A DNA stretch of 64,000 nucleotides from Candidatus Omnitrophota bacterium (GCA_041652815.1 JBAZGN010000005.1:8615-72614), one strand, 5' to 3'. Positions 11,984 to 45,982 are shown, counted from the stretch's first letter. The notes: a model not told the origin generated them from the sequence alone. Numbers and translations are program-made.

Positions 11984-14900
11984 ATGAAATATAAGCATTT
12001 CCCAGGACAACAAGGTCTCTACTACCCGGAATATGAGCATGATTCTTGCGGGGTGGGGTTTGTTTGTAACATAAAAGGCCAGAAATCAAATGCTATCGTC
12101 CGGCAGGGAATTGAGGTTTTACGCCGGCTGTCGCACCGAGGAGCAGTAGGTTCGGACCCAAAAACCGGAGATGGCGCGGGAATCTTAATTCAGATCCCGC
12201 ACGAATTTTTTAAAAAGTCCGCTCAAGCAATAAAAATTAATTTACCGGAATTAGGTTTCTACGGCACCGGTTTGATATTTTTGCCGAAAGATATTAAAGA
12301 ACGTGAATTCTGTAAAAAAACATTTGAAAAAATTATAAAAGATGAAGGCCAAATTTTTTTAGGATGGCGTAGTGTGCCGATAGATAATTCGGATATAGGC
12401 AAAGGAGCCAAGGCCAGCGAGCCGGTTTTTGAACAAGTTTTTATTGAGAGAAACAAAGATGTAAGCGGGGAACTGGATTTTGAAAGGAAACTTTATGTAA
12501 TCAGAAAACAAGTGGAAAATATTATCCGTTCATCCGAATTACAGCAAAAGAAATCTTTCTATATTACTAATATTTCCACCCGCACATTTTCCTATAAGGG
12601 TTTGCTCATGCCTGGCCAGCTGGAGAACTTTTTTGTTGACCTTAAGGATGAAAGTATAGAAAGTTCACTATGTTTAGTGCATTCACGTTATAGTACTAAT
12701 ACTTTTCCTACCTGGGACTTAGCGCAGCCATTTAGATTCTTAGCTCACAACGGAGAAATAAATACTTTACGCGGGAATATAAACGGAGTACGGGCAAGAG
12801 AACGGTTAATTTCCAGCGAGATTTTTGGGGCAGATATAGAAAAGCTAAAACCAGTTATCGTTGAAGGAGGGAGCGATTCGGCTGCAATTGATAATCTATT
12901 TGAGCTGCTGGTTTTATCGGGCCGGCCCCTTGAGCATACAATGATGATGCTTATTCCTGCGGCTTGGGAACACGATAAATTTATGGATTGTGAGCTTAAA
13001 GATTTTTATAAATATCATGCTTGTTTTATGGAGCCTTGGGATGGGCCGGCGGCAATGGCTTTTACCGACGGAAAAAATATTGCTGCCGCTTTAGATAGAA
13101 ACGGACTTAGGCCAGCGCGTTATATTATAACTAAAAATGATTTTGTAGTGATGGCATCTGAGGTAGGCGTTTTGGATATTGCACCTAAAGATATTAAGAT
13201 TTCAGGCCGTCTTGAGCCGGGAAAATTATTTTTTATTGATACGCAAGCAGGCTGCATAGTAGACGATTCCCAGATAAAAAAAAGAGTATCCGGCAATTGC
13301 CCATATGGTAAATGGAATACCGAAAATATGGTTGATCTTGATAGCCTTGTAGGCGGCAGTACAGGCAATAAAAAACCCGCAGATATAATAGCTTGCCTTA
13401 AGGCTTTTGGTTATTCCCGGGAAGACCTGAAAATAGTTATTCGGCCTATGGCCGAAGAAGGGAAAGAGCCCGTAGGTTCAATGGGCAATGATACTCCGCA
13501 TGCTTTTTTGTCAAAGAAACCCCAGCTTCTTTATAGCTATTTTAAGCAATTGTTTGCGCAAGTAACAAATCCGGCGATAGATTCTATCAGAGAAAAGCTG
13601 GTGATGAGTTTAGAAAGTTTTATCGGCCCTGAGAAAAATATTTTAGAGGAAACTCCTAAGCATAGCCATAAACTTAAAGTAAGGAATCCGATATTAACAA
13701 ACGAAGAACTTATAAAAATTCGAGATATCAGCATAAATAATTTTAGAACCAAGACGATTTATACTTTTTTTGACGCAGTTAATCCTAAGGAAGGTTTTGT
13801 CCGCGCGCTGGAAAGGATTTGTTTTGAAGCGGAATATGCCATTGATAAAGGGTATTCTTTTATTATATTAAGTGACCGTGGAATTGATAAGGATAGAATT
13901 GCTTTGCCGGCACTTTTAGCAATGAGCGCAGTCCATCATTATCTGGTAAGAAAAACTATACGTTCGCAGGTTGCGATAATAGTTGAAAGCGCAGAGCCCA
14001 GAGAGGTACACCATTTTGCTTTGCTTTTTGGTTACGGCGCAGACTGCATAAACCCATATCTTGCCTATGAAACAATAGAATATCTTATCAGCGAAAAAGA
14101 GATTAATTTAGACCGTAAAAACGCATTGAAGAATTACAATAAAGCTTTAACAGACGGCATATTAAAAATATTGTCAAAAATGGGGATATCTACCTTAAGA
14201 AGCTATCGCGGAGCGCAAATATTTGAAGCTTTAGGTTTAGACGATGAGCTTATAGAGAAGTATTTTACCGGAACCGTATCGCGAATAGCCGGCGTTGGCC
14301 TTCCCGGGATAGCGCAGGAGACTATCGAAAGGCATAAAGAAGCTTTCGCCCAAAGAGGCGTAGTTAGCCCGTATTTAACCAGCGGTGGAATTTATCAATG
14401 GAAAAGAGATGGAGAATTTCATCTTTGGAATCCCGAAACTATCGCTGCCTTGCAAGATGCTACGCGCAATAACGATTATGACAAATATAAAGAATTTGCG
14501 CGGATGATAAATAATCAGTCAGATAATCCTGTGACCTTGAGAAGCTTGCTTAAGTTCAAAAAAGAAAAACCGATTCCTATTGATGAAGTTGAACCCGTTC
14601 AAAGTATTATGCGGCGTTTTACAACCGGCGCAATGAGTTTTGGTTCAATCAGTGCTTTAGCGCACGAAACAATTGCTATCGCCATGAACAGAATAGGCGG
14701 AAAATCTAACACCGGTGAAGGTGGCGAAGATCCGGACAGATTTACGGCCCTACCTAACGGCGACTCAAAAAGAAGCGCCGTAAAACAAGTTGCCTCCGGA
14801 AGATTCGGTGTCACTACAAACTATCTTGTTAATGCAGATGAAATACAAATAAAGATTGCTCAGGGGGCAAAGCCAGGCGAAGGAGGCCAATTACCGGGGC

Positions 14901-16513
14901 ATAAAGTAAGCCCGATAATCGCCCGAATCAGGTATACAACCCCCGGCGTTACTTTAATATCTCCGCCGCCGCATCATGATATATATTCTATTGAGGACCT
15001 TGCACAATTAATATTTGATTTAAAAAATGTTAATCCTCGCGCCCGCGTAAGCGTAAAGCTTGTATCAGAAGTAGGAGTAGGAACTGTTGCCGCAGGCGTT
15101 GCCAAAGGGCATGCGGATATGATTCTTATTTCCGGCGGAGACGGCGGCACCGGCGCATCTCCTCAGAGCTCAATAAGATATGCAGGGCTTCCGTGGGAGC
15201 TTGGCGTTAGCGAGACGCATCAAACACTCCTGCTGAATAATTTACGTTCAAGAGTGCGCATACAAACTGATGGGCAGATGCGAACCGGCCGCGATGTGGC
15301 AATAGCCGCTTTGTTAGGAGCGGAAGAATTTGGTTTTTGTTCGAGCGTGCTTGTTGTAAGCGGCTGCGTTATGCTTAGGCATTGCCAGCTTAATAATTGT
15401 TCAGTTGGCATAGCTACGCAAGATGAGGCTTTACAGAAACGCTTTGGAGGAAAACCTGAATATATAGTGAACTATTTTAATTTCATAACACAGGAACTAC
15501 GCGAAATTATGGCAAGTTTAGGCATAAGGACTATAAACGAAATGATTGGCCGCGCAGATCTTATTGAAGTAAATAAAGAGATTATTCCTTCCAAAGCGCG
15601 CGGAGTAAATTATTCCAAAATCCTTTATGTGCCGGAATTACCTCGAGATTATGCAAGATATTGTAAAGTAAAACAGGAAAGCGGGCTTGATTTTGTTTTA
15701 GACAAAGAACTTATAAAAATGTGTGGTGTTTTTAAAGAGAATGAGCCAATAAAAATTTCAGTTAAGATTAATAATACCAACAGAACTGCAGGTGCAATGC
15801 TTAGCGGAGAGTTAATCCGGCGCTATGGAGAAGCGGGGTTGCCCCATGATTCTATAGTTTGTAAATTTAAAGGCATTGCCGGCCAAAGTTTTGGCGCTTT
15901 TCTGGCGAAAGGAATTACTTTTGAATTAGAAGGTATGGCTAATGATTATGTTGGCAAAGGAATTTCCGGAGGAAAAATTATTATTTATCCAGATAAACAG
16001 ACAGGATATAAGGCCGAAGAAAATATTATTATTGGAAATACCGCGTTTTATGGTGCTATCGCTGGTGAAGCTTATATTGGAGGTGTTGCCGGCGAACGGT
16101 TTTGTATACGAAACTCAGGCCTTAAGGCAGTAGTTGAAGGCGTGGGGGATCATGGTTGCGAGTATATGACCGGCGGGTATGTCGCTATAATCGGTAAGAC
16201 CGGCCGTAATTTTGCCGCAGGTATGAGCGGCGGCATTGCGTATGTATATAATGCAGGAAAAGATTTTAATCAGAAATGTAATTTAGAAATGGTGGAGTTG
16301 GAAATTCTTTCCCAGAATGATGAAAAAGTACTTTACGATTTACTCTGTAACCATCATAAATACACTCAAAGCGCAATTGCTAAGAAAATTATTGAGCATT
16401 TTAAAAAAGAAATTAAACATTTTGTCAAAGTTATGCCAACAGAATATAAACGTATTTTAGCAGGGAAAAAAGCGATAAAGAAACCGGATTTGGTTGAGGT
16501 GTCAGATGGGTGA
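11984..16513 (+). CDS. gltB: Glutamate synthase large subunit
   Basis: 1509 aa. N-terminal amidotransferase domain with CGVGF, central domain, FMN domain (GEGGEDP, KQVASGRFGV), C-terminal GXGXG repeats. Confidence 0.95.
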   Translation: MKYKHFPGQQGLYYPEYEHDSCGVGFVCNIKGQKSNAIVRQGIEVLRRLSHRGAVGSDPKTGDGAGILIQIPHEFFKKSAQAIKINLPELGFYGTGLIFLPKDIKEREFCKKTFEKIIKDEGQIFLGWRSVPIDNSDIGKGAKASEPVFEQVFIERNKDVSGELDFERKLYVIRKQVENIIRSSELQQKKSFYITNISTRTFSYKGLLMPGQLENFFVDLKDESIESSLCLVHSRYSTNTFPTWDLAQPFRFLAHNGEINTLRGNINGVRARERLISSEIFGADIEKLKPVIVEGGSDSAAIDNLFELLVLSGRPLEHTMMMLIPAAWEHDKFMDCELKDFYKYHACFMEPWDGPAAMAFTDGKNIAAALDRNGLRPARYIITKNDFVVMASEVGVLDIAPKDIKISGRLEPGKLFFIDTQAGCIVDDSQIKKRVSGNCPYGKWNTENMVDLDSLVGGSTGNKKPADIIACLKAFGYSREDLKIVIRPMAEEGKEPVGSMGNDTPHAFLSKKPQLLYSYFKQLFAQVTNPAIDSIREKLVMSLESFIGPEKNILEETPKHSHKLKVRNPILTNEELIKIRDISINNFRTKTIYTFFDAVNPKEGFVRALERICFEAEYAIDKGYSFIILSDRGIDKDRIALPALLAMSAVHHYLVRKTIRSQVAIIVESAEPREVHHFALLFGYGADCINPYLAYETIEYLISEKEINLDRKNALKNYNKALTDGILKILSKMGISTLRSYRGAQIFEALGLDDELIEKYFTGTVSRIAGVGLPGIAQETIERHKEAFAQRGVVSPYLTSGGIYQWKRDGEFHLWNPETIAALQDATRNNDYDKYKEFARMINNQSDNPVTLRSLLKFKKEKPIPIDEVEPVQSIMRRFTTGAMSFGSISALAHETIAIAMNRIGGKSNTGEGGEDPDRFTALPNGDSKRSAVKQVASGRFGVTTNYLVNADEIQIKIAQGAKPGEGGQLPGHKVSPIIARIRYTTPGVTLISPPPHHDIYSIEDLAQLIFDLKNVNPRARVSVKLVSEVGVGTVAAGVAKGHADMILISGGDGGTGASPQSSIRYAGLPWELGVSETHQTLLLNNLRSRVRIQTDGQMRTGRDVAIAALLGAEEFGFCSSVLVVSGCVMLRHCQLNNCSVGIATQDEALQKRFGGKPEYIVNYFNFITQELREIMASLGIRTINEMIGRADLIEVNKEIIPSKARGVNYSKILYVPELPRDYARYCKVKQESGLDFVLDKELIKMCGVFKENEPIKISVKINNTNRTAGAMLSGELIRRYGEAGLPHDSIVCKFKGIAGQSFGAFLAKGITFELEGMANDYVGKGISGGKIIIYPDKQTGYKAEENIIIGNTAFYGAIAGEAYIGGVAGERFCIRNSGLKAVVEGVGDHGCEYMTGGYVAIIGKTGRNFAAGMSGGIAYVYNAGKDFNQKCNLEMVELEILSQNDEKVLYDLLCNHHKYTQSAIAKKIIEHFKKEIKHFVKVMPTEYKRILAGKKAIKKPDLVEVSDG

Positions 16514-16600
16514 GCGTTACACGTAACAAGTATCACGTAACACGTTTAAAAAAAGACGCGATACTTGTTACATGATACGTGTTACTTAATAAAGGAAAAG
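16514..16600. repeat. Palindromic GTAAC/CACGT-rich element (member of the GTATCACGTAAC-termini family) between gltB and gltD
   Basis: GTTACACGTAAC, GTAACAAGTATC...GATACTTGTTAC inverted pair, GTATCACGTAACACG. It shares terminal motifs with the elements at 23552-23662 and 50333-50461. Confidence 0.6.
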
Positions 16601-40595: not shown

Positions 40596-41273
40596 ATGGA
40601 GAGACATGTTGATCAAGAATTAAAAGGGTTGAATAAAGAAATTCTGAAGATGAGTGCCTTAGTAGAAGAAGCCATCTGTAAATCTATTGAGGCGCTAAAG
40701 AACAGAGACAGGGGAATGGCCATAAGCGTCATAGATAATGACTCCAATATTGATAAGTTAGAATTATCCATAGATGAAAAGTGCATTGATTTGATAGCGC
40801 GCTATCAACCTATGGCTAAAGATCTCCGCTTTATTACCACCGGCATGAAAATAAATGCTGAATTAGAGCGGATAGCGGATATTGCTGTAGATATAGCCCA
40901 ACGCACGCTTGAAATAGTAGATAAGCCGCTCTTAAAGCCGCTAATTGATATACCTAAGCTAACAGTGGTTGCGCAAAACATGGTAAAGCTGTCTATAGAC
41001 GCATTTGTTAAAGGTGATATCGCGCTCGCCAAAAAAGTTTTACTGTCTGATTCCGAAGCTGACGAGCTTCGGAATATAATACAAAAAGAGCTTATCGAAG
41101 ATTACATGGTAAAAGATGGAACGACTGCTCCAAGGGCAGTGCAGCTGTTGTTGATAGCCCGTTTTCTGGAACGTATATGCGACCACACTACTAATATTGC
41201 CGAAGATGTGATTTATATGGTTCAGGCAGAAGTTGTAAGGCATCATCCTGAGAAATTAAAAAATGGAAAATAA
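40596..41273 (+). CDS. phoU: PhoU, second copy
   Basis: 225 aa. ELERIADIAVDI / ERICDHTTNI. Confidence 0.9.
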   Translation: MERHVDQELKGLNKEILKMSALVEEAICKSIEALKNRDRGMAISVIDNDSNIDKLELSIDEKCIDLIARYQPMAKDLRFITTGMKINAELERIADIAVDIAQRTLEIVDKPLLKPLIDIPKLTVVAQNMVKLSIDAFVKGDIALAKKVLLSDSEADELRNIIQKELIEDYMVKDGTTAPRAVQLLLIARFLERICDHTTNIAEDVIYMVQAEVVRHHPEKLKNGK

Positions 41274-41369
41274 AATGTCTACTTCTTGGCGAGGAAACAT
41301 CTCTCAAATTTACCAAAAACACTTGACAAGATTACGCCTTAGTGTTATCTTTCTAAGGAAGGTGTTACT

Positions 41370-41771
41370 ATGAGAACAATAAAAAGATTTGGCGTATCAT
41401 TAGAGGAAGAGCTGTTTAATGAATTGGATGCTATTGTCAAAAAGCATAAATTTCCTAACAGAAGCCAGGCCATCCGTTTTCTCATACGTAAGAATACAGC
41501 CGAAGAAGCATACGAAGAAAATAAAGAAGTTTCAGGAGCGGTTGTTATAATTTATGACCATCATAGAAGGGAGCTTGTTAATAAGTCATTAGATATCCAG
41601 CATGAGTTTACCAATATAATCTTAGCCAGCCAGCATGTTCATTTAAGCCATCACAGCTGTTTAGAGATAATCGCTCTTAAGGGGAAAGCTTCAAACCTTA
41701 AAGCGTTAGCAGATAAACTGATAGCCTTAAAAGGAGTAAAACACGGTAAGCTCGTAGTTACTTCAGCGTAA
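41370..41771 (+). CDS. nikR: Nickel-responsive regulator NikR
   Basis: Ribbon-helix-helix N-terminus (KRFGVSLEEELFNELDAIV...NRSQAIRFLI). C-terminal ACT-like domain with His/Cys cluster HVHLSHHSC. The promoter region contains a CCTTAG-N10-CTAAGG palindrome. Confidence 0.8.
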   Translation: MRTIKRFGVSLEEELFNELDAIVKKHKFPNRSQAIRFLIRKNTAEEAYEENKEVSGAVVIIYDHHRRELVNKSLDIQHEFTNIILASQHVHLSHHSCLEIIALKGKASNLKALADKLIALKGVKHGKLVVTSA

Positions 41772-41815
41772 AAATTTTTTTAATTTCTGGTAGCACGATT
41801 TTTAGAAAAGTAGCA

Positions 41816-41977
41816 ATGAATAATAAAAATGTAGCAACAGAAGATAAAGAAAAGCAGCAAATTCTTGCTGAAATTAAAACCGCAATGGAAAAAATAAAAT
41901 ATGGAGAAGTAGTGATTACGATCCATGATTCAGAAGTTGTACAAATTGAAAAAAGAGAGAAGAGGCGGTTTAAATAG
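41816..41977 (+). CDS. YezD/DUF2292-family small protein, 53 aa
   Basis: ...IKYGEVVITIHDSEVVQIEKREKRRF matches the DUF2292 signature (GxVxIxxxDGxVVQIExxEKxR). Not in the track because it is under 60 aa. Confidence 0.5.
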   Translation: MNNKNVATEDKEKQQILAEIKTAMEKIKYGEVVITIHDSEVVQIEKREKRRFK

Positions 41978-42065
41978 CGAATACTACTGCGCCCGCAGTG
42001 TCAGATATTAAATAGTAGTTTTTTCGACTGGACAACCAGAGAAAGAAATAAAGGAGGTTGTCCAG

Positions 42066-43412
42066 ATGCGGATAATTGCATTTTTAATTGGCATTTGTTT
42101 TTTTACAAATGCTTGTTTTGCTGAAGAAGTTTCCATAAAAGATGAGATTACTCAACTTAGGGCTCGCCTTGAAGTTTTGGAGCAGAAATTAGCTATCCAG
42201 GAAAAAAGTATGGGTGAACAAAAGCAGTGCATTCTAGACCAAAATAAGAAAATTTCCGATTACGAATCAAAACTAAGCCAATTTGATACGAAGTTACATC
42301 GCGAGGCAGGCAAACCCATTCCGCTCGTAGAAGGCCTTGATATCAGCGCCGGCGCTACAATGATTGTGCAGGGCACCAATAACGTAAACAGCGCTTCAGA
42401 TGCCGCGGCGCTAAAAGACAGCCGTGCTGATGGTTCCTATTCTACCGACATCACTATAGCTAAAGAATTTGAAGAAATCAGCGGCCGGGCCTTTCTGCAC
42501 CTTGAAAACGGCCAGGGCGAAGGACTTGAAGATAACCTTACCTTGTACAGTAATGTCAACCGTGACGCTGACGATGATGTCAATGTCAGGGTTACCGAAG
42601 CCTGGTATGAACAAGGTTTTTTCAATAATAAAGCAGCTATAACCTTTGGAAAGTTAGATCCTACGGTTTATTTCGACAACAATGAAGTTGCCAATGATGA
42701 AACTACCCAGTTTTTAGGCAGAATGTTTCGTAACGCTGCGACAATTGATTTTCCGGATAATACTGCCGGTATCCGCCTTGCCTACATGCCGAAAGAATGG
42801 ATTGAATTCAACTATGGCGTATTTGATGGAAACAATGATTGGGAAAAAATTACCGATAACCTGGTTAATATGGGCCAGGTAACTTTTAAAACTAACTTCT
42901 TCAATCTTCCCGGTAACTACCGTTTCTACGGCTGGAACAATAATACCTATTACACTAAATGGCTCGATGAAACTAAAAACAAAGAAAATGCCTATGGTTT
43001 TGGCTTAAGTTTTGACCAGAAGGCAAACGATATCGTAACTCTTTTTACCCGTTACGGTTGGCAGAATCCGGAAGTTTATAATCCTAATATCACGGCAACC
43101 GGAGATTTAAGTTATTCCCTTGAACAATCCTGGAGCGCAGGTTTTCAGGTGGAAGGTAAACCCTGGGGTAGAGAGAACGATGTAGCTGCTTTTGCGATTG
43201 GCCAGATTTTCCCTTCCGATAATTACAAAGAAGCCACCGGACGTCTGGGTAAATCCGAAGGCCATCTTGAAGCTTATTACAAAATATTTGTTAACAAGCA
43301 CCTTTCCTTAAGCCCTGATTTCCAATATATCTGGAATCCTTTTGGAAAAGATATACCAGATGATACAAACGGAGTGTTTGTAGGCGGAATGAGGACACAG
43401 GTGGATTTTTAA
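42066..43412 (+). CDS. Outer-membrane porin with long N-terminal coiled coil (OprB/carbohydrate-porin-like barrel)
   Basis: 448 aa. Signal peptide, ~60-aa coiled coil (ITQLRARLEVLEQKLAIQEK...), beta-rich body ending ...GGMRTQVDF. A CTGGACAACC-N18-GGTTGTCCAG inverted repeat abuts the start codon. Confidence 0.55.
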   Translation: MRIIAFLIGICFFTNACFAEEVSIKDEITQLRARLEVLEQKLAIQEKSMGEQKQCILDQNKKISDYESKLSQFDTKLHREAGKPIPLVEGLDISAGATMIVQGTNNVNSASDAAALKDSRADGSYSTDITIAKEFEEISGRAFLHLENGQGEGLEDNLTLYSNVNRDADDDVNVRVTEAWYEQGFFNNKAAITFGKLDPTVYFDNNEVANDETTQFLGRMFRNAATIDFPDNTAGIRLAYMPKEWIEFNYGVFDGNNDWEKITDNLVNMGQVTFKTNFFNLPGNYRFYGWNNNTYYTKWLDETKNKENAYGFGLSFDQKANDIVTLFTRYGWQNPEVYNPNITATGDLSYSLEQSWSAGFQVEGKPWGRENDVAAFAIGQIFPSDNYKEATGRLGKSEGHLEAYYKIFVNKHLSLSPDFQYIWNPFGKDIPDDTNGVFVGGMRTQVDF

Positions 43413-43561
43413 GTGAAACATTAACCCCGCACCCAGTCTGTATAAAAGAAAATTTAAGGGTACTGGGTGCGGAGTAATTCGCGCTAACATTTTTTCTGCG
43501 CCACGCCCGCTTTACAGCGGTCAGGGCTCGAAAAAATGTTGCGCTCATTAGGAGGTAAAAA

Positions 43562-43840
43562 ATGTGGTTAGCAACAACTTCTATTGCGGCAAGCTGTGCA
43601 ACTTTAGCTAAATTTGCTTTGCCAAAAAAATACAAATTAGGTTTTTTGGCTTTAATGTTATGGGGGGCGACAATAATGATTTTTATTGATCATATATTAG
43701 GGTACGAAGGCGGAGGGTTTTTAGAGAAAACAACAGATGGAATGATTAAGAATAGTACAGTGTTAGGGCTTGCAATGTTGGTGCCGGTGTTTATAATATG
43801 GGGAATATCACTTTTAATTTCAAATTTAAAAAGGAGGTAA
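43562..43840 (+). CDS. Small membrane protein (3 predicted TM), paralog A
   Basis: 92 aa. RBS ttaggaggtaaaaaATG. Shares LxxMLWGxxxMxxxxH and IWGI motifs with the next ORF. Confidence 0.5.
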   Translation: MWLATTSIAASCATLAKFALPKKYKLGFLALMLWGATIMIFIDHILGYEGGGFLEKTTDGMIKNSTVLGLAMLVPVFIIWGISLLISNLKRR

Positions 43841-43843
43841 CAA

Positions 43844-44158
43844 ATGGCTTGTTTTGTTGTTCCAATGAGTGCGGCAATAGTAACCACTGCTGTAAGCAAA
43901 AAAGTTCCTGAAAAATATCATCTTAGTTGGTTAAATGCGATGTTATGGGGCGGCGTGGCAATGTTGGCAGTTGAACATGTCACTCACGGCGAAGTTGTTC
44001 TTTATCCGCCCTTTCTAACCGCTGGCCTTCCTGAGGTTTTGCCGGAAATGGCAAGAGTTGGCATCCCGATGACCCTGTCTATTTTCCTAATATGGGGAAT
44101 AATGGTAACAGTAGCCGCGGTGATGAGTAAAAAATTAAAGTATGTAGAAACGCGATAA
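43844..44158 (+). CDS. Small membrane protein (3 predicted TM), paralog B
   Basis: 104 aa. RBS aaaggaggtaacaaATG. The HVTHGE motif and conserved LWG/IWGI segments parallel paralog A. Confidence 0.5.
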   Translation: MACFVVPMSAAIVTTAVSKKVPEKYHLSWLNAMLWGGVAMLAVEHVTHGEVVLYPPFLTAGLPEVLPEMARVGIPMTLSIFLIWGIMVTVAAVMSKKLKYVETR

Positions 44159-44179
44159 AGAATTACGATAGACATAACC

Positions 44180-44210
44180 AAGGCCCACCTATTAGGTGGG
44201 CCTTGTGTTT
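44180..44210 (+). terminator. Rho-independent terminator
   Basis: AAGGCCCACC-TATTA-GGTGGGCCTT perfect 10-bp stem followed by GTGTTTAT. Confidence 0.6.
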
Positions 44211-44293
44211 ATGCAATCTTAACTTCCACTTAAACCGTAAATGGAGAAGCCGTCCCTTTGTAGATTATTTCTGCCATTCGATGTTGGAATGCC

Positions 44294-44347
44294 TCTCTAA
44301 AACCCAAATATCTTGTCATAACGCTACATCGTCTATATAATTCTTCT
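44294..44347 (+). promoter_or_regulatory. Conserved motif copy 2, containing a consensus sigma-70 promoter (TTGTCA-17-TATAAT)
   Basis: TTGTCA at 44313-44318 and TATAAT at 44336-44341 with a 17-nt spacer. Near-identical to 4356-4401 apart from spacer length. The predicted TSS is about 44346-44348, at the start of the GC-rich element. Confidence 0.5.
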
Positions 44348-44557
44348 CTCCCATTGCCAGAGGCCACGGACTACGCCCGTGGACGAATGGTGGAGCGGGA
44401 CGCCGCCCCACTGGGACGTATTTAGAGAACAGGGACCATGGGTATGCCAATGGGGCTCCAGTATAAATAGGGAGGGGTTTTCCCTCGGTCGATGCGAGTG
44501 GGATCTCAATATTATGCCTTTCAACGTGCGAGGCAGAGAGATAATAGCGCCGGTTTT
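44346..44557 (+). ncRNA. Unclassified GC-rich structured RNA-like element, copy 2 (paralog of 4176-4355), with its own promoter
   Basis: Same ordered landmarks as copy 1: CCACGG-N7-CCGTGG hairpin, GGGACGCCGCCCCACTGGGA, and GGGGCTCCAG about 70 nt downstream of the hairpin. A second consensus promoter (44611-44639) follows, so this is probably an independent transcript. The overlapping track ORFs lack RBSs. Confidence 0.35.
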
Positions 44558-44610
44558 TAAATATGATCAGTACTATTTTTATGCCCAAGTATAGAAAAAT
44601 GAACTAAAAA

Positions 44611-44639
44611 TTGTCATTTAATTTGCTATCTGTTATAAT
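44611..44639 (+). promoter_or_regulatory. Sigma-70 promoter for the porin/MFS operon
   Basis: TTGTCA-17-TATAAT, 12 nt before the ATG region of the 44651 gene. Confidence 0.5.
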
Positions 44640-44650
44640 GTATACGACAA

Positions 44651-45982
44651 ATGAAGAAAATTATCACTTTCTCGATAGTATTTCTTCTAATAGCTAATTG
44701 TGCATTCGCGCAAGAGGCGATAATTTCTCCTTCCAAGCCTGCGACATTATTTCAACAATTAAAATCATGGTGGAGCGGTGAGTATTTTTTCGGTAATTGG
44801 GGCGGTAAACGGAAAGAATTAAGTGAGCGCGGAGTAGATTTTACCAGCACTTACGTTACCGACCTTTTAACGAATGTCCACGGCGGCATAAGAAAGAACC
44901 GTTTCCGTTATGACTCATCTTTAGGTTTGGATATTAACGTTGACCTTGAAAAAGTTTTCGCTTTAAACGGATTACAATTCCATATTTCTGGCGTCTATCG
45001 TGAAGGAAAAAACCTTTCCGGAGACATAGGTAATCGTTTCCCGCCTTCGAGTATCTACGGCTCAGAGTATGTACAGCTTTATAACCTTTATCTGGAACAA
45101 GAGATGTTTCAGGATAAGGTAAGCCTTAAAGTAGGGCGTCTTGGTACAGGAGACGACTTTGCGCAATCGCCGCTCTACGGGACATTTCTTACCAATTCCA
45201 TAGATGGCTGCCCCATCAGTTTGCCGATAAACTTTTTTTTCACGGTTTATCCAACCGCCACCTGGGGTGCCCGTTTGAAATTGAAACCGGCGAATGCTTT
45301 TGTGTGGCAGGGCGGGATTTATCACCAGGATTCAGGTGTTAGCCGCGAAGCTGCGCACGGAGCAGATTTAACATGGAGAAGCAATAAGGGAATTCTTTTC
45401 ATTCAGGAATTTAGTTTCTTGCCCAATCAATATGCTGAAGCAGAAGGCCTTCCGGGAAATTATAAATTAGGAGTTTTTTATTCCACGGGGCGTTTCAAGG
45501 ATTTATATGCGGACGAAAACGGAGGCTCTTATGCTTCAACGGGTTTGCTTCAGAAGAGGCGTTATGGAAATTACGGCCTTTACCTTCATGCCGATCAGAT
45601 GCTCTATCGCGAGCCGGATTCTAAAGACCAGGGGTTTACGCCATTTTTTGTAGTGGTATTGCAGCCAAGCGATATGAATGAACTACCGCTTTTCATAGAT
45701 TTAGGGCTTACTTATAAAGGATTAATTCCCGGCCGCGATAATGATGTTGCCGGAATAGGCCTTGCTTATGGCAAGTGGAGCAGGCAATTAAACAAACACC
45801 ATAGTGATGCCGGAGAAGAAAAACAGACATTTGAAACCGTAATTGAGGCTACTTATAAAATCGCCATAAACCAATGGCTATATTTCCAACCGGATATTCA
45901 ATATATCATTAATCCCAACGGCGGTAATCAGGATACTGGTAACGCTTTAGTTACCGGAGCAAGAATCGGCATTACCTTTTAG
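44651..45982 (+). CDS. Carbohydrate-selective porin (OprB family)
   Basis: 443 aa. Signal peptide. GNWGGKR..L...GV.F motif near the N-terminus. Barrel body ending ...GARIGITF. Confidence 0.65.
   Translation: MKKIITFSIVFLLIANCAFAQEAIISPSKPATLFQQLKSWWSGEYFFGNWGGKRKELSERGVDFTSTYVTDLLTNVHGGIRKNRFRYDSSLGLDINVDLEKVFALNGLQFHISGVYREGKNLSGDIGNRFPPSSIYGSEYVQLYNLYLEQEMFQDKVSLKVGRLGTGDDFAQSPLYGTFLTNSIDGCPISLPINFFFTVYPTATWGARLKLKPANAFVWQGGIYHQDSGVSREAAHGADLTWRSNKGILFIQEFSFLPNQYAEAEGLPGNYKLGVFYSTGRFKDLYADENGGSYASTGLLQKRRYGNYGLYLHADQMLYREPDSKDQGFTPFFVVVLQPSDMNELPLFIDLGLTYKGLIPGRDNDVAGIGLAYGKWSRQLNKHHSDAGEEKQTFETVIEATYKIAINQWLYFQPDIQYIINPNGGNQDTGNALVTGARIGITF

Follow-up and report, generated by a model that had tools for sequence, protein, structure and literature searches.

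The subject of this work is an operon in a 64,000-nucleotide (nt) stretch of a Candidatus Omnitrophota bacterium genome (GCA_041652815.1 JBAZGN010000005.1:8615-72614), the whole of which is referred to as the window. Five genes follow one another on its + strand, 3' of pstC-pstA-pstB-pstB-phoU: nikR, a DUF2292 gene, the gene of an OprB-family porin, and two genes, mini1 and mini2, for small paralogous membrane proteins. We propose, with moderate confidence, that mini1 and mini2 form a heteromeric six-helix permease for Ni(II) uptake which is repressed by NikR, the porin giving passage across the outer membrane. A first-pass annotation of this DNA had suggested an undescribed NikR-controlled nickel route with an outer and inner membrane relay, and the suggestion has gained ground: the mini family has no existing model, it is linked to nikR, to NikR boxes and to nickel-related neighbours, and the pair occupies the place of an importer. 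The open reading frames (ORFs) of all five genes are where that annotation had put them, and the operon is laid out as follows.

41370-41771, + strand: nikR, nickel-responsive ribbon-helix-helix (RHH) repressor of 133 amino acids (aa)
41816-41977, + strand: DUF2292/YezD-like gene, 53 aa
42066-43412, + strand: OprB-family outer-membrane porin, 448 aa, with a signal peptide and an N-terminal coiled coil
43562-43840, + strand: mini1, membrane protein of 92 aa
43844-44158, + strand: mini2, membrane protein of 104 aa
44179-44205, + strand: terminator-like stem with 13-bp arms, 21 nt past the mini2 stop codon, taken as the operon end

Mini1 and mini2 belong to a widespread family of paired membrane proteins

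Mini1 and mini2 are paralogues, as had been noticed at first reading (BLASTP, 28 % identity, E 3e-11). Even at E = 1 neither has a match among the Pfam and NCBIfam models, 49 diverse relatives scanned singly at E up to 10 gave no family in these databases either, and a profile search of PDB sequences gave no relative of mini2 or of the mini family. The homology check asked for in the first-pass annotation has thus matched the pair to no known non-metal family. The sequence of mini1 is also that of a deposited 'hypothetical protein' from a Candidatus Omnitrophota genome.

The size of the family is 820 and 430 clusters at 90 % identity, and an exhaustive profile search gave 384 representatives at 50 % identity. 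With one genome per species, a scan yielded 80 loci; the locus counts below refer to 83 related loci. The hosts are Omnitrophota, Patescibacteria/candidate-phyla-radiation bacteria, Hadarchaeota, Thermoplasmatota, Aenigmatarchaeota, Altiarchaeota, Iainarchaeota, WOR-3, Atribacterota and Bacteroidota. Mini1 and mini2 genes stand side by side in 79 of the 83 loci, in both orders, and natural mini2-mini1 fusions exist (P0245, P0391, P0392 and P0323). Within the Omnitrophota the mini-proteins are 75-88 % identical, and the NikR proteins of the same loci fall to 45-50 %.

Conservation is concentrated at the N-termini and in a short acidic and histidine-containing cluster. Across 79 loci mini1 begins with MW in every case (MWLxTT being the conserved form) and mini2 with MAC in 77; the MACF N-terminus is kept in all loci but two. 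Among 45 paired sequences C3, E44, H45, H48, E50 and E68 of mini2 and D43 and H44 of mini1 are invariant; the His-containing motifs picked out at first reading are therefore conserved ones.

Three transmembrane helices had been predicted for each protein. A hydropathy scan bears this out for mini2 and gives two or three for mini1, and AlphaFold models of the natural fusion P0392, made with two alignments, show 3+3 long helices at low confidence, so three each is plausible. Foldseek searches of the PDB with the fusion model returned noise only, with no similar solved fold. The distribution of Lys and Arg is strongly biased (6.3 versus 0.4 for mini2, 3.9 versus 0.4 for mini1), placing loop 1 and the C-terminus inside. 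This suggests that mini1 and mini2 lie parallel in the membrane with the conserved N-terminus and the acidic/His cluster facing outwards.

The fusion P0392 (236 aa; L198 5001-5711) is a full-length six-helix mini2-mini1 protein whose Arg-rich linker conflicts with the placing of the mini1 N-terminus on the outside, as inferred for the free protein. In the other three fusions (P0245, P0391 and P0323) the mini1 half has lost its first helix, and the conflict does not arise. P0392 may be an intermediate or a gene-calling artefact.

The pair is linked to nikR and to nickel-related genes

The product of nikR in the window is a full member of the NikR family. It passes the NCBIfam equivalog NF003381 (152 bits, cutoff 105) and matches Pfam NikR_C at 6e-30; its RHH domain is recognized by Pfam RHH_1 at E 6e-4, with 20.1 bits, slightly below the cutoff of 20.5. 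The best PDB match is the NikR of Pyrococcus horikoshii (2bj1, E 2.3e-34), to whose HVHMDEHNC the window sequence HVHLSHHSC aligns, as does the YDHH region. The RHH domain and the nickel site reported in the first-pass annotation are thus present, the latter in NikR_C, the domain for tetramerization and nickel binding. The high-affinity site, to which the neighbouring subunit contributes a His in this family, reads H-x-H-x5-C, like that of NikR proteins of solved structure, and not HxHxxxxC.

Searching other genomes for co-occurrence with nikR, a check that had been recommended, placed nikR beside the mini pair in 49 of the 83 loci, bacterial and archaeal, including those of Thermoplasmatota, Hadarchaeota, Aenigmatarchaeota, Altiarchaeota and Iainarchaeota. 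In the Omnitrophota it lies upstream and points the same way as the pair; in most archaea it is divergent. Clustering of all neighbours brought out HypF in nine archaeal loci. LarC, LarB and LarE (nickel-pincer cofactor genes) lie near the pair in three to four Thermoplasmatota loci, the large subunit of a group-4 [NiFe]-hydrogenase in Hadarchaeota, and Fur, FeoAB and ZIP in a few loci.

The earlier remark that no canonical nickel transporter is present holds. NikABCDE components are absent from 41280-44160, the only nearby ATP-binding cassette (ABC) genes being pstCAB for phosphate transport, and tblastn with NikM and NikQ of locus L088 found no homologue in the window or in the 83 mini-pair loci. 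CbiM, PDGLE and CbiN gave no Pfam match for the mini-proteins or their 49 relatives, CbiQ was matched in two of the 49 at best at E 3.3, which is chance level, and the NiCoT, HupE/UreJ and UreH profiles gave no match at E up to 10 among the 49 members.

NikR boxes lie upstream of the cassette genes

In the delta-proteobacteria the NikR operator is GTGTTAC-N13/14-GTAACAC (Rodionov et al. 2004, PMC545781). Half-sites of this kind, with the family's spacing of about two helical turns, occur at two places in the operon.

41323-41351, + strand: promoter P1 of nikR, with -35 TTGACA, a 17-nt spacer and -10 TATCTT (10 of 12 positions in a consensus scan)
41342-41368, + strand: NikR box 1, GTGTTAT-N13-GTGTTAC, covering the nikR -10, the ribosome-binding site (RBS) and the base before the ATG
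41768-41816, + strand: NikR box array 2, GTAAAAA-N15-GTAGCAC-N13-GTAGCAA, ending in the ATG of the DUF2292 gene, with a probable promoter P2

The -35 of P1 is invariant among six orthologous loci. The half-sites of box 1 are a direct-repeat variant of the published operator and are kept in the five closest loci (L001, L011, L013, L025 and L051), and array 2 is kept in the same relatives. Sister Omnitrophota have the inverted form at the same position of the nikR promoter, perfect in L029 and L035 and with one mismatch in the others. In another Omnitrophota subtype the array GTATTAT-N14-GTAGCAC-N13-GTAGCAC, followed by the RBS, stands directly 5' of the OprB porin, of an outer-membrane protein of Phenol_MetA_deg type, or of mini1. 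Archaeal nikR-mini intergenic regions carry GTAGCAC-N13-TTGTTAC, and boxes are found 5' of the pair also where nikR is not adjacent (L057, L060, L072 and L073).

Counted over the loci, NikR boxes have a density of 1.31/kb in the 200 nt upstream of cassette genes compared with 0.017/kb elsewhere, an enrichment of about 77-fold, and at least one box is found in the upstream zones of 38 of the 49 nikR-linked loci. In bacteria these boxes lie over the -10 and the RBS, and in Hadarchaeota they stand to either side of the TATA box. This arrangement suggests expression at low nickel, which fits an importer. Taken together, these patterns make it very probable that the mini-pair operon belongs to the NikR regulon.

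The only other box-like matches in the window are at 16514-16590, between the ORF of the glutamate synthase large subunit (11984-16513) and that of the small subunit (start near 16600). The sequence there forms a long, imperfect hairpin (-28.4 kcal/mol as RNA, z -3.7) built of GTAACAC, GTGTTAC and GTATCAC words, the same heptamers as the NikR half-sites, at 14-nt spacing. It may be a cluster of NikR sites or a plain intercistronic hairpin.

The pair occupies the place of an inner-membrane importer

The second and third genes of the operon were assigned by profile. The DUF2292 protein matches Pfam PF10055 at 1.5e-15 (57 bits, cutoff 22) and fails the OscA equivalog NF033785 (46.7 bits, cutoff 85). 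The porin (E 4.7e-29) contains the Pfam PF04966 barrel at residues 148-448 with 102.4 bits against a cutoff of 22.9, and its N-terminal region gives weak coiled-coil-type matches only.

Between the two lies a leader with the conserved element CCGACUGGACAACCAGAGG. Scanning metagenomes with the 5' arm of an inverted repeat in this leader (dyad 2, below) gave about 27 genuine loci, and in every scanned locus with its flanks on the contig CCGACUGGACAACCAGAGG has a DUF2292 gene on one side and a coiled-coil OprB porin on the other. By Pfam assignment the cassettes are of three kinds: NikR with the mini pair; NikR-NikM(CbiM+PDGLE)-NikQ-NikO, in L088; and DtxR-FeoA-FeoA-FeoB ... Fur, in L133, L145, L154, L160, L179 and others. 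DUF2292 gene, leader and porin thus make up a portable outer-membrane module, attached to the inner-membrane metal importers FeoAB or NikMQO or to the mini pair. Since the same trio follows NikMQO or FeoAB elsewhere, the mini pair appears to fill the slot of the inner-membrane importer, and since the window and the 83 loci have no NikM or NikQ homologue, it would replace an energy-coupling factor (ECF) importer and not assist one. The company of NikR, NikMQO and FeoAB points to metal cations as the likely substrates of the porin instead of the carbohydrates of its family name.

The module is found at L088 3557-5074 and L133 4873-6461, and also in L145, L154, L160, L179, L115 and L161; several of the Feo-type loci carry a small Cys-rich membrane protein, and Fur flanks them. 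In eight Omnitrophota loci (L012, L014, L017, L021, L023, L024, L027 and L029) the OprB porin is replaced between nikR and mini1 by a non-homologous outer-membrane protein of about 300 aa from the Phenol_MetA_deg family (PF13557). In the four of these loci whose upstream region was read (L012, L017, L023 and L024) this protein stands behind the same array of NikR half-sites. L015 has no outer-membrane gene in its cassette.

Proposed mechanism and alternatives to it

Transport itself, its substrate and direction, heteromer formation and its stoichiometry, the metal ligands and the energy coupling we infer from the patterns above, and the mechanism that we favour is as follows. When nickel is plentiful NikR would shut the operon off through GTGTTAC/GTAACAC-type half-site arrays at two places: box 1 would bring about autoregulation of nikR, lying over its -10, RBS and the base before the ATG, and array 2 probably lies over a second promoter, which would serve DUF2292-porin-mini1-mini2. 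When nickel is limiting, the OprB-type porin would pass Ni(II) across the outer membrane, and mini1 and mini2, each with its N-terminus outside and its C-terminus inside, would form a six-helix inner-membrane permease that moves Ni(II) into the cytoplasm. The probable metal site on the outer face would be made up of C3 in the conserved N-terminus of mini2, its E44, H45, H48 and E50, and D43 and H44 of mini1.

The pair might instead be a split unit for substrate capture, S-component-like, or an accessory one, that needs an energizing module or a transporter encoded elsewhere, such as a shared EcfA/A'/T or an ABC system. The six helices of the two proteins together equal an ECF S component in size, and their near-invariant N-termini recall CbiM/NikM, which have an N-terminal metal site. 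The cassette encodes no energy source, and Znu-like ABC genes lie near the pair in L019, L026 and L046. We nevertheless consider this unlikely, because nikR and an outer-membrane protein are the only recurrent partners across the 83 loci, with no recurrent CbiQ, EcfT or dedicated ATPase, and because in L088 the ECF genes NikMQO stand in for the pair and not alongside it.

Slightly less likely again is a part in detoxification, by export or sequestration of nickel or cobalt, or one as a nickel sensor or chaperone in the membrane that feeds hydrogenase or Lar maturation. The archaeal pairs adjoin HypF and LarBCE, acidic and His residues on the outer face would suit a release site equally well, and NikR can activate genes in some bacteria, as in Helicobacter pylori. 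However, boxes placed over the -10, the RBS or TATA elements have the geometry of nickel-dependent repression. Additionally, the pair is co-operonic with the porin, and the cassettes that share its outer-membrane module carry the importers NikMQO or FeoAB. Known nickel exporters, moreover, are usually under RcnR-, CsoR- or ArsR-type de-repressors and not under NikR. We therefore retain Ni(II) uptake by a mini1/mini2 permease as the preferred reading.

The inverted repeats of the operon are mostly RNA elements

The first-pass annotation had described three dyads as possible regulatory sites bound by NikR, with plain terminators as the alternative. All three are present where they had been described.

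41337-41358, + strand: dyad 1, CCTTAG-N10-CTAAGG, not conserved
42028-42065, + strand: dyad 2, CTGGACAACC-N18-GGTTGTCCAG, arms 42028-42037 and 42056-42065, ending at the porin ATG
41978-42075, + strand: porin leader RNA, with a small hairpin at 41985-42000, the conserved CCGACUGGACAACCAGAGG at 42024-42042 and an extended hairpin at 42023-42072
43424-43475 and 43481-43544, + strand: two intercistronic RNA hairpins, the second being dyad 3, neither with a U-tail

The arms of dyad 1 vary without compensation in L001, L013 and L025, and the conserved elements that overlap it are GTGTTAY half-sites with a spacing of 13 nt. The dyad has arisen by chance or is private to this lineage, and it lies over NikR box 1.

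Dyad 2 provides the core arms of the extended hairpin, which encloses the Shine-Dalgarno (SD) sequence and the AUG of the porin. The leader folds better than shuffled sequences (z -2.75) and is kept in 16 loci of the window type. In these the 10-bp core of dyad 2 shows one compensatory change from C-G to U-A and two G.U changes, the helix runs across the AUG, and the extension has three further variations of G.U type. The small upstream hairpin also covaries. These substitutions mark dyad 2 as a predicted conserved RNA hairpin that buries the RBS and start codon of the porin gene and may thereby gate its translation. In the NikMQO- and Feo-type cassettes the 3' arm is absent and a self-complementary CUGG-ACAA-CCAG is kept, which argues that dyad 2 is a lineage-specific extension of a DUF2292-associated leader, one predicted to sequester SD and AUG. 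The recurrence of DUF2292 and leader suggests a general role in the expression of metal-uptake porins.

Dyad 3 has a perfect 11-nt core (43486-43496/43530-43540) and reaches across 43481-43544 with one bulge. The two hairpins between porin and mini1 fold together at -58 kcal/mol (z -5.0). Both lie within a 149-nt insert shared with L051 only, where four pairs are changed on both sides, and the loop of dyad 3 varies from 17 to 33 nt between these two loci. Most relatives lack the insert and have 15-25 nt with an SD between porin and mini1. Dyad 3 is best read as an intercistronic mRNA element for stability or differential expression, neither operator nor terminator; the two hairpins would act on the mRNA, most likely on its stability or on the relative expression of the two parts.

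That the three repeats are operators, for NikR or for another DNA-binding protein, is accordingly very improbable. Their positions are real, dyad 1 overlaps a -10, and the almost invariant sequence of dyad 2 in 16 loci would also be compatible with a DNA site. Against this, the closest relatives have not kept dyad 1, the G.U changes in dyad 2 keep RNA pairing only, its 3' arm is missing from the Feo- and NikMQO-type loci where the 5' motif persists, and dyad 3 is confined to two loci with loops of differing length. None of the three resembles the enriched NikR half-site. The plain-terminator alternative also falls, since no U-tract follows the stem of dyad 2 or dyad 3.

Rfam 15 gave neither a riboswitch nor any other known RNA: the whole window had no match at the gathering threshold, and 41200-44700, searched with E allowed up to 10, had chance-level matches only. 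A dispersed REP-/MITE-like origin of the porin-mini1 hairpins was also considered and rejected: matches with two mismatches in the window are near chance, with no convincing further copy.

Points against a nickel permease

Several observations weigh against a NikR-controlled Ni(II) permease. About 40 % of the loci have no nearby nikR and mostly no recognizable box; these are loci of candidate-phyla-radiation bacteria, Bacteroidota, WOR-3, Atribacterota and a large Chloroflexi/Actinobacteria clade. The half-sites in the window are direct and not inverted, array 2 taken alone is weak (three mismatches) and draws its support from conservation, and a single box with up to two mismatches in 64 kb is at chance level, about four being expected in shuffled sequence. 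As the single-window box is not significant, the case for NikR boxes rests on conservation across loci. Searched for with the neighbour proteins as queries, HypF, [NiFe]-hydrogenase, LarBCE, Fur, FeoB and ZIP gave no match in the 64-kb window, and these queries thus brought out no gene there for a nickel enzyme or its maturation. No energy-coupling component is evident for the pair. The P0392 models are weak (pLDDT 67-70, pTM 0.38-0.55) and were used for the helix count only. Finally, no description of the mini family was found in the searchable literature, whose coverage is incomplete, so an earlier description is possible.

The nikR-less loci, and the uninformative contexts of the Chloroflexi/Actinobacteria clade, might also be taken to mean that the minis are generic small membrane proteins whose link to nickel is incidental, but this is the least credible of the explanations, given that nikR adjoins the pair in six or more phyla, with either gene order and either relative orientation, that NikR boxes are enriched upstream of the cassette genes and that three independent kinds of nickel-related neighbour stand beside the pair.

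Comparison with known systems

The NikR-controlled nikMNQO, nik(MN)QO and nikKMLQO operons encode ECF-type nickel importers (Rodionov et al. 2004, PMC545781; Zhang et al. 2009, PMC2667541). The operon described here shares with the nikMNQO type the regulator, the operator family and the logic of uptake repression, but has no CbiM, CbiQ, PDGLE, CbiN or ATPase; in the inner membrane it has two proteins of about 100 aa for which homology to an ECF component could not be detected. HupE/UreJ, NiCoT (NixA/HoxN) and UreH are likewise ATPase-free membrane proteins, often encoded beside hydrogenase or urease maturation genes, with His, Asp and Glu at helix ends proposed as nickel ligands. Those are single polypeptides with six to eight helices, whereas here there are two paralogous three-helix subunits with strictly conserved N-termini.

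For the outer membrane, Helicobacter FrpB4 and FecA3 offer a parallel: as far as the account cited in PMC11247825 goes, they serve NikR-regulated, TonB-dependent nickel uptake, so that there too NikR would control an outer-membrane component together with an inner-membrane importer. By comparison with that account the present cassette has a passive OprB-type porin or a Phenol_MetA_deg-type barrel and no TonB/ExbBD. The cyanobacterial Som-type 'iron uptake porin' (NF033921) is similar in its OprB barrel, N-terminal coiled coil and association with metal-cation uptake, and relatives of the window porin follow feoAB. However, the window porin matches NF033921 weakly (E 0.0012, 17.5 bits, cutoff 100) and has no SLH domain. 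The DUF2292 gene differs from OscA in context, as it belongs to a metal-uptake cassette, followed by a leader RNA and a porin, and not to a sulfur-starvation setting. In these terms the system is a known NikR regulatory logic joined to a new transporter family, with the DUF2292-leader-porin module as a further new element.

A more far-reaching reading can be offered tentatively. Mini1 and mini2 may found a new minimal family of high-affinity Ni(II) importers: ATPase-free heterodimers of three-helix subunits in which an N-terminal hook, (Met-)Ala-Cys of mini2, would act with E-H-x-x-H-x-E on the outer face of mini2 and D-H of mini1, functionally analogous to the N-terminal sites of NikM/CbiM or of nickel superoxide dismutase. 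Such a family could supply the nickel transporter that is missing in many anaerobes with small genomes (Omnitrophota, candidate-phyla-radiation bacteria, DPANN, Hadarchaeota and Thermoplasmatota). Within the same reading, DUF2292 proteins would partner the conserved CUGGACAACCAG leader in trans and gate the translation of metal-uptake porins.

A gap of this kind is on record: 62 bacteria have nickel enzymes but no recognizable nickel transporter (Zhang et al. 2009, PMC2667541), and in the Thermoplasmales three of four genomes encode a [NiFe]-hydrogenase, with one NiCoT only, of unassigned specificity (PMC2667541). A two-gene system of about 200 residues tied to NikR is a concrete candidate for the missing importer in bacteria and archaea, and its small size makes it directly testable. 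If the proposal is true, it would add a transporter family of unusual architecture and improve metabolic reconstruction of uncultured lineages. Two by-products are the portable outer-membrane module common to nickel and iron uptake cassettes, and a conserved RNA leader, absent from Rfam, that may gate translation.

Other observations

Downstream of the stem at 44179-44205 are an unrelated OprB porin gene and then a sugar transporter of the major facilitator superfamily. The approximately 450 nt between this terminator and the next porin gene (44206-44650) have no convincing ORF and no Rfam match, and contain two strong sigma-70-like promoter matches, at 44313-44341 and 44611-44639, each with 11 of 12 positions.

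In the large Chloroflexi/Actinobacteria clade (L194/L195 5001-5701; L196/L197; L198 5001-5711) there is no nikR nearby. The mini2-like protein has 134 aa, with an insertion in the cytoplasmic loop, and its stop codon overlaps a 98-aa ORF, or else the two are fused as 206-236 aa. Common to the 5' regions are a short palindrome behind the -10 and, close to the RBS, the element TCCCTGA(A/G)AGG; the palindromes 5' of the pair in L194, L196 and L198 are possible Nur- or Zur-type boxes. Rfam searches of the Chloroflexi/Actinobacteria and candidate-phyla-radiation loci gave no riboswitch 5' of the pair, the sole cobalamin riboswitch (L196) serving genes on the opposite strand.

Finally, one Omnitrophota lineage (L002, L003 and L016; about 7100-8315 of L002) has a lone mini2 beside Fur, rubrerythrin, ZIP and FeoAB. 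The position of mini1 is taken there by an AAA-ATPase/DUF4143 gene, a 95-aa ORF and a gene for a '23S rRNA intervening sequence protein', and it looks as if an insertion has disrupted the mini pair.

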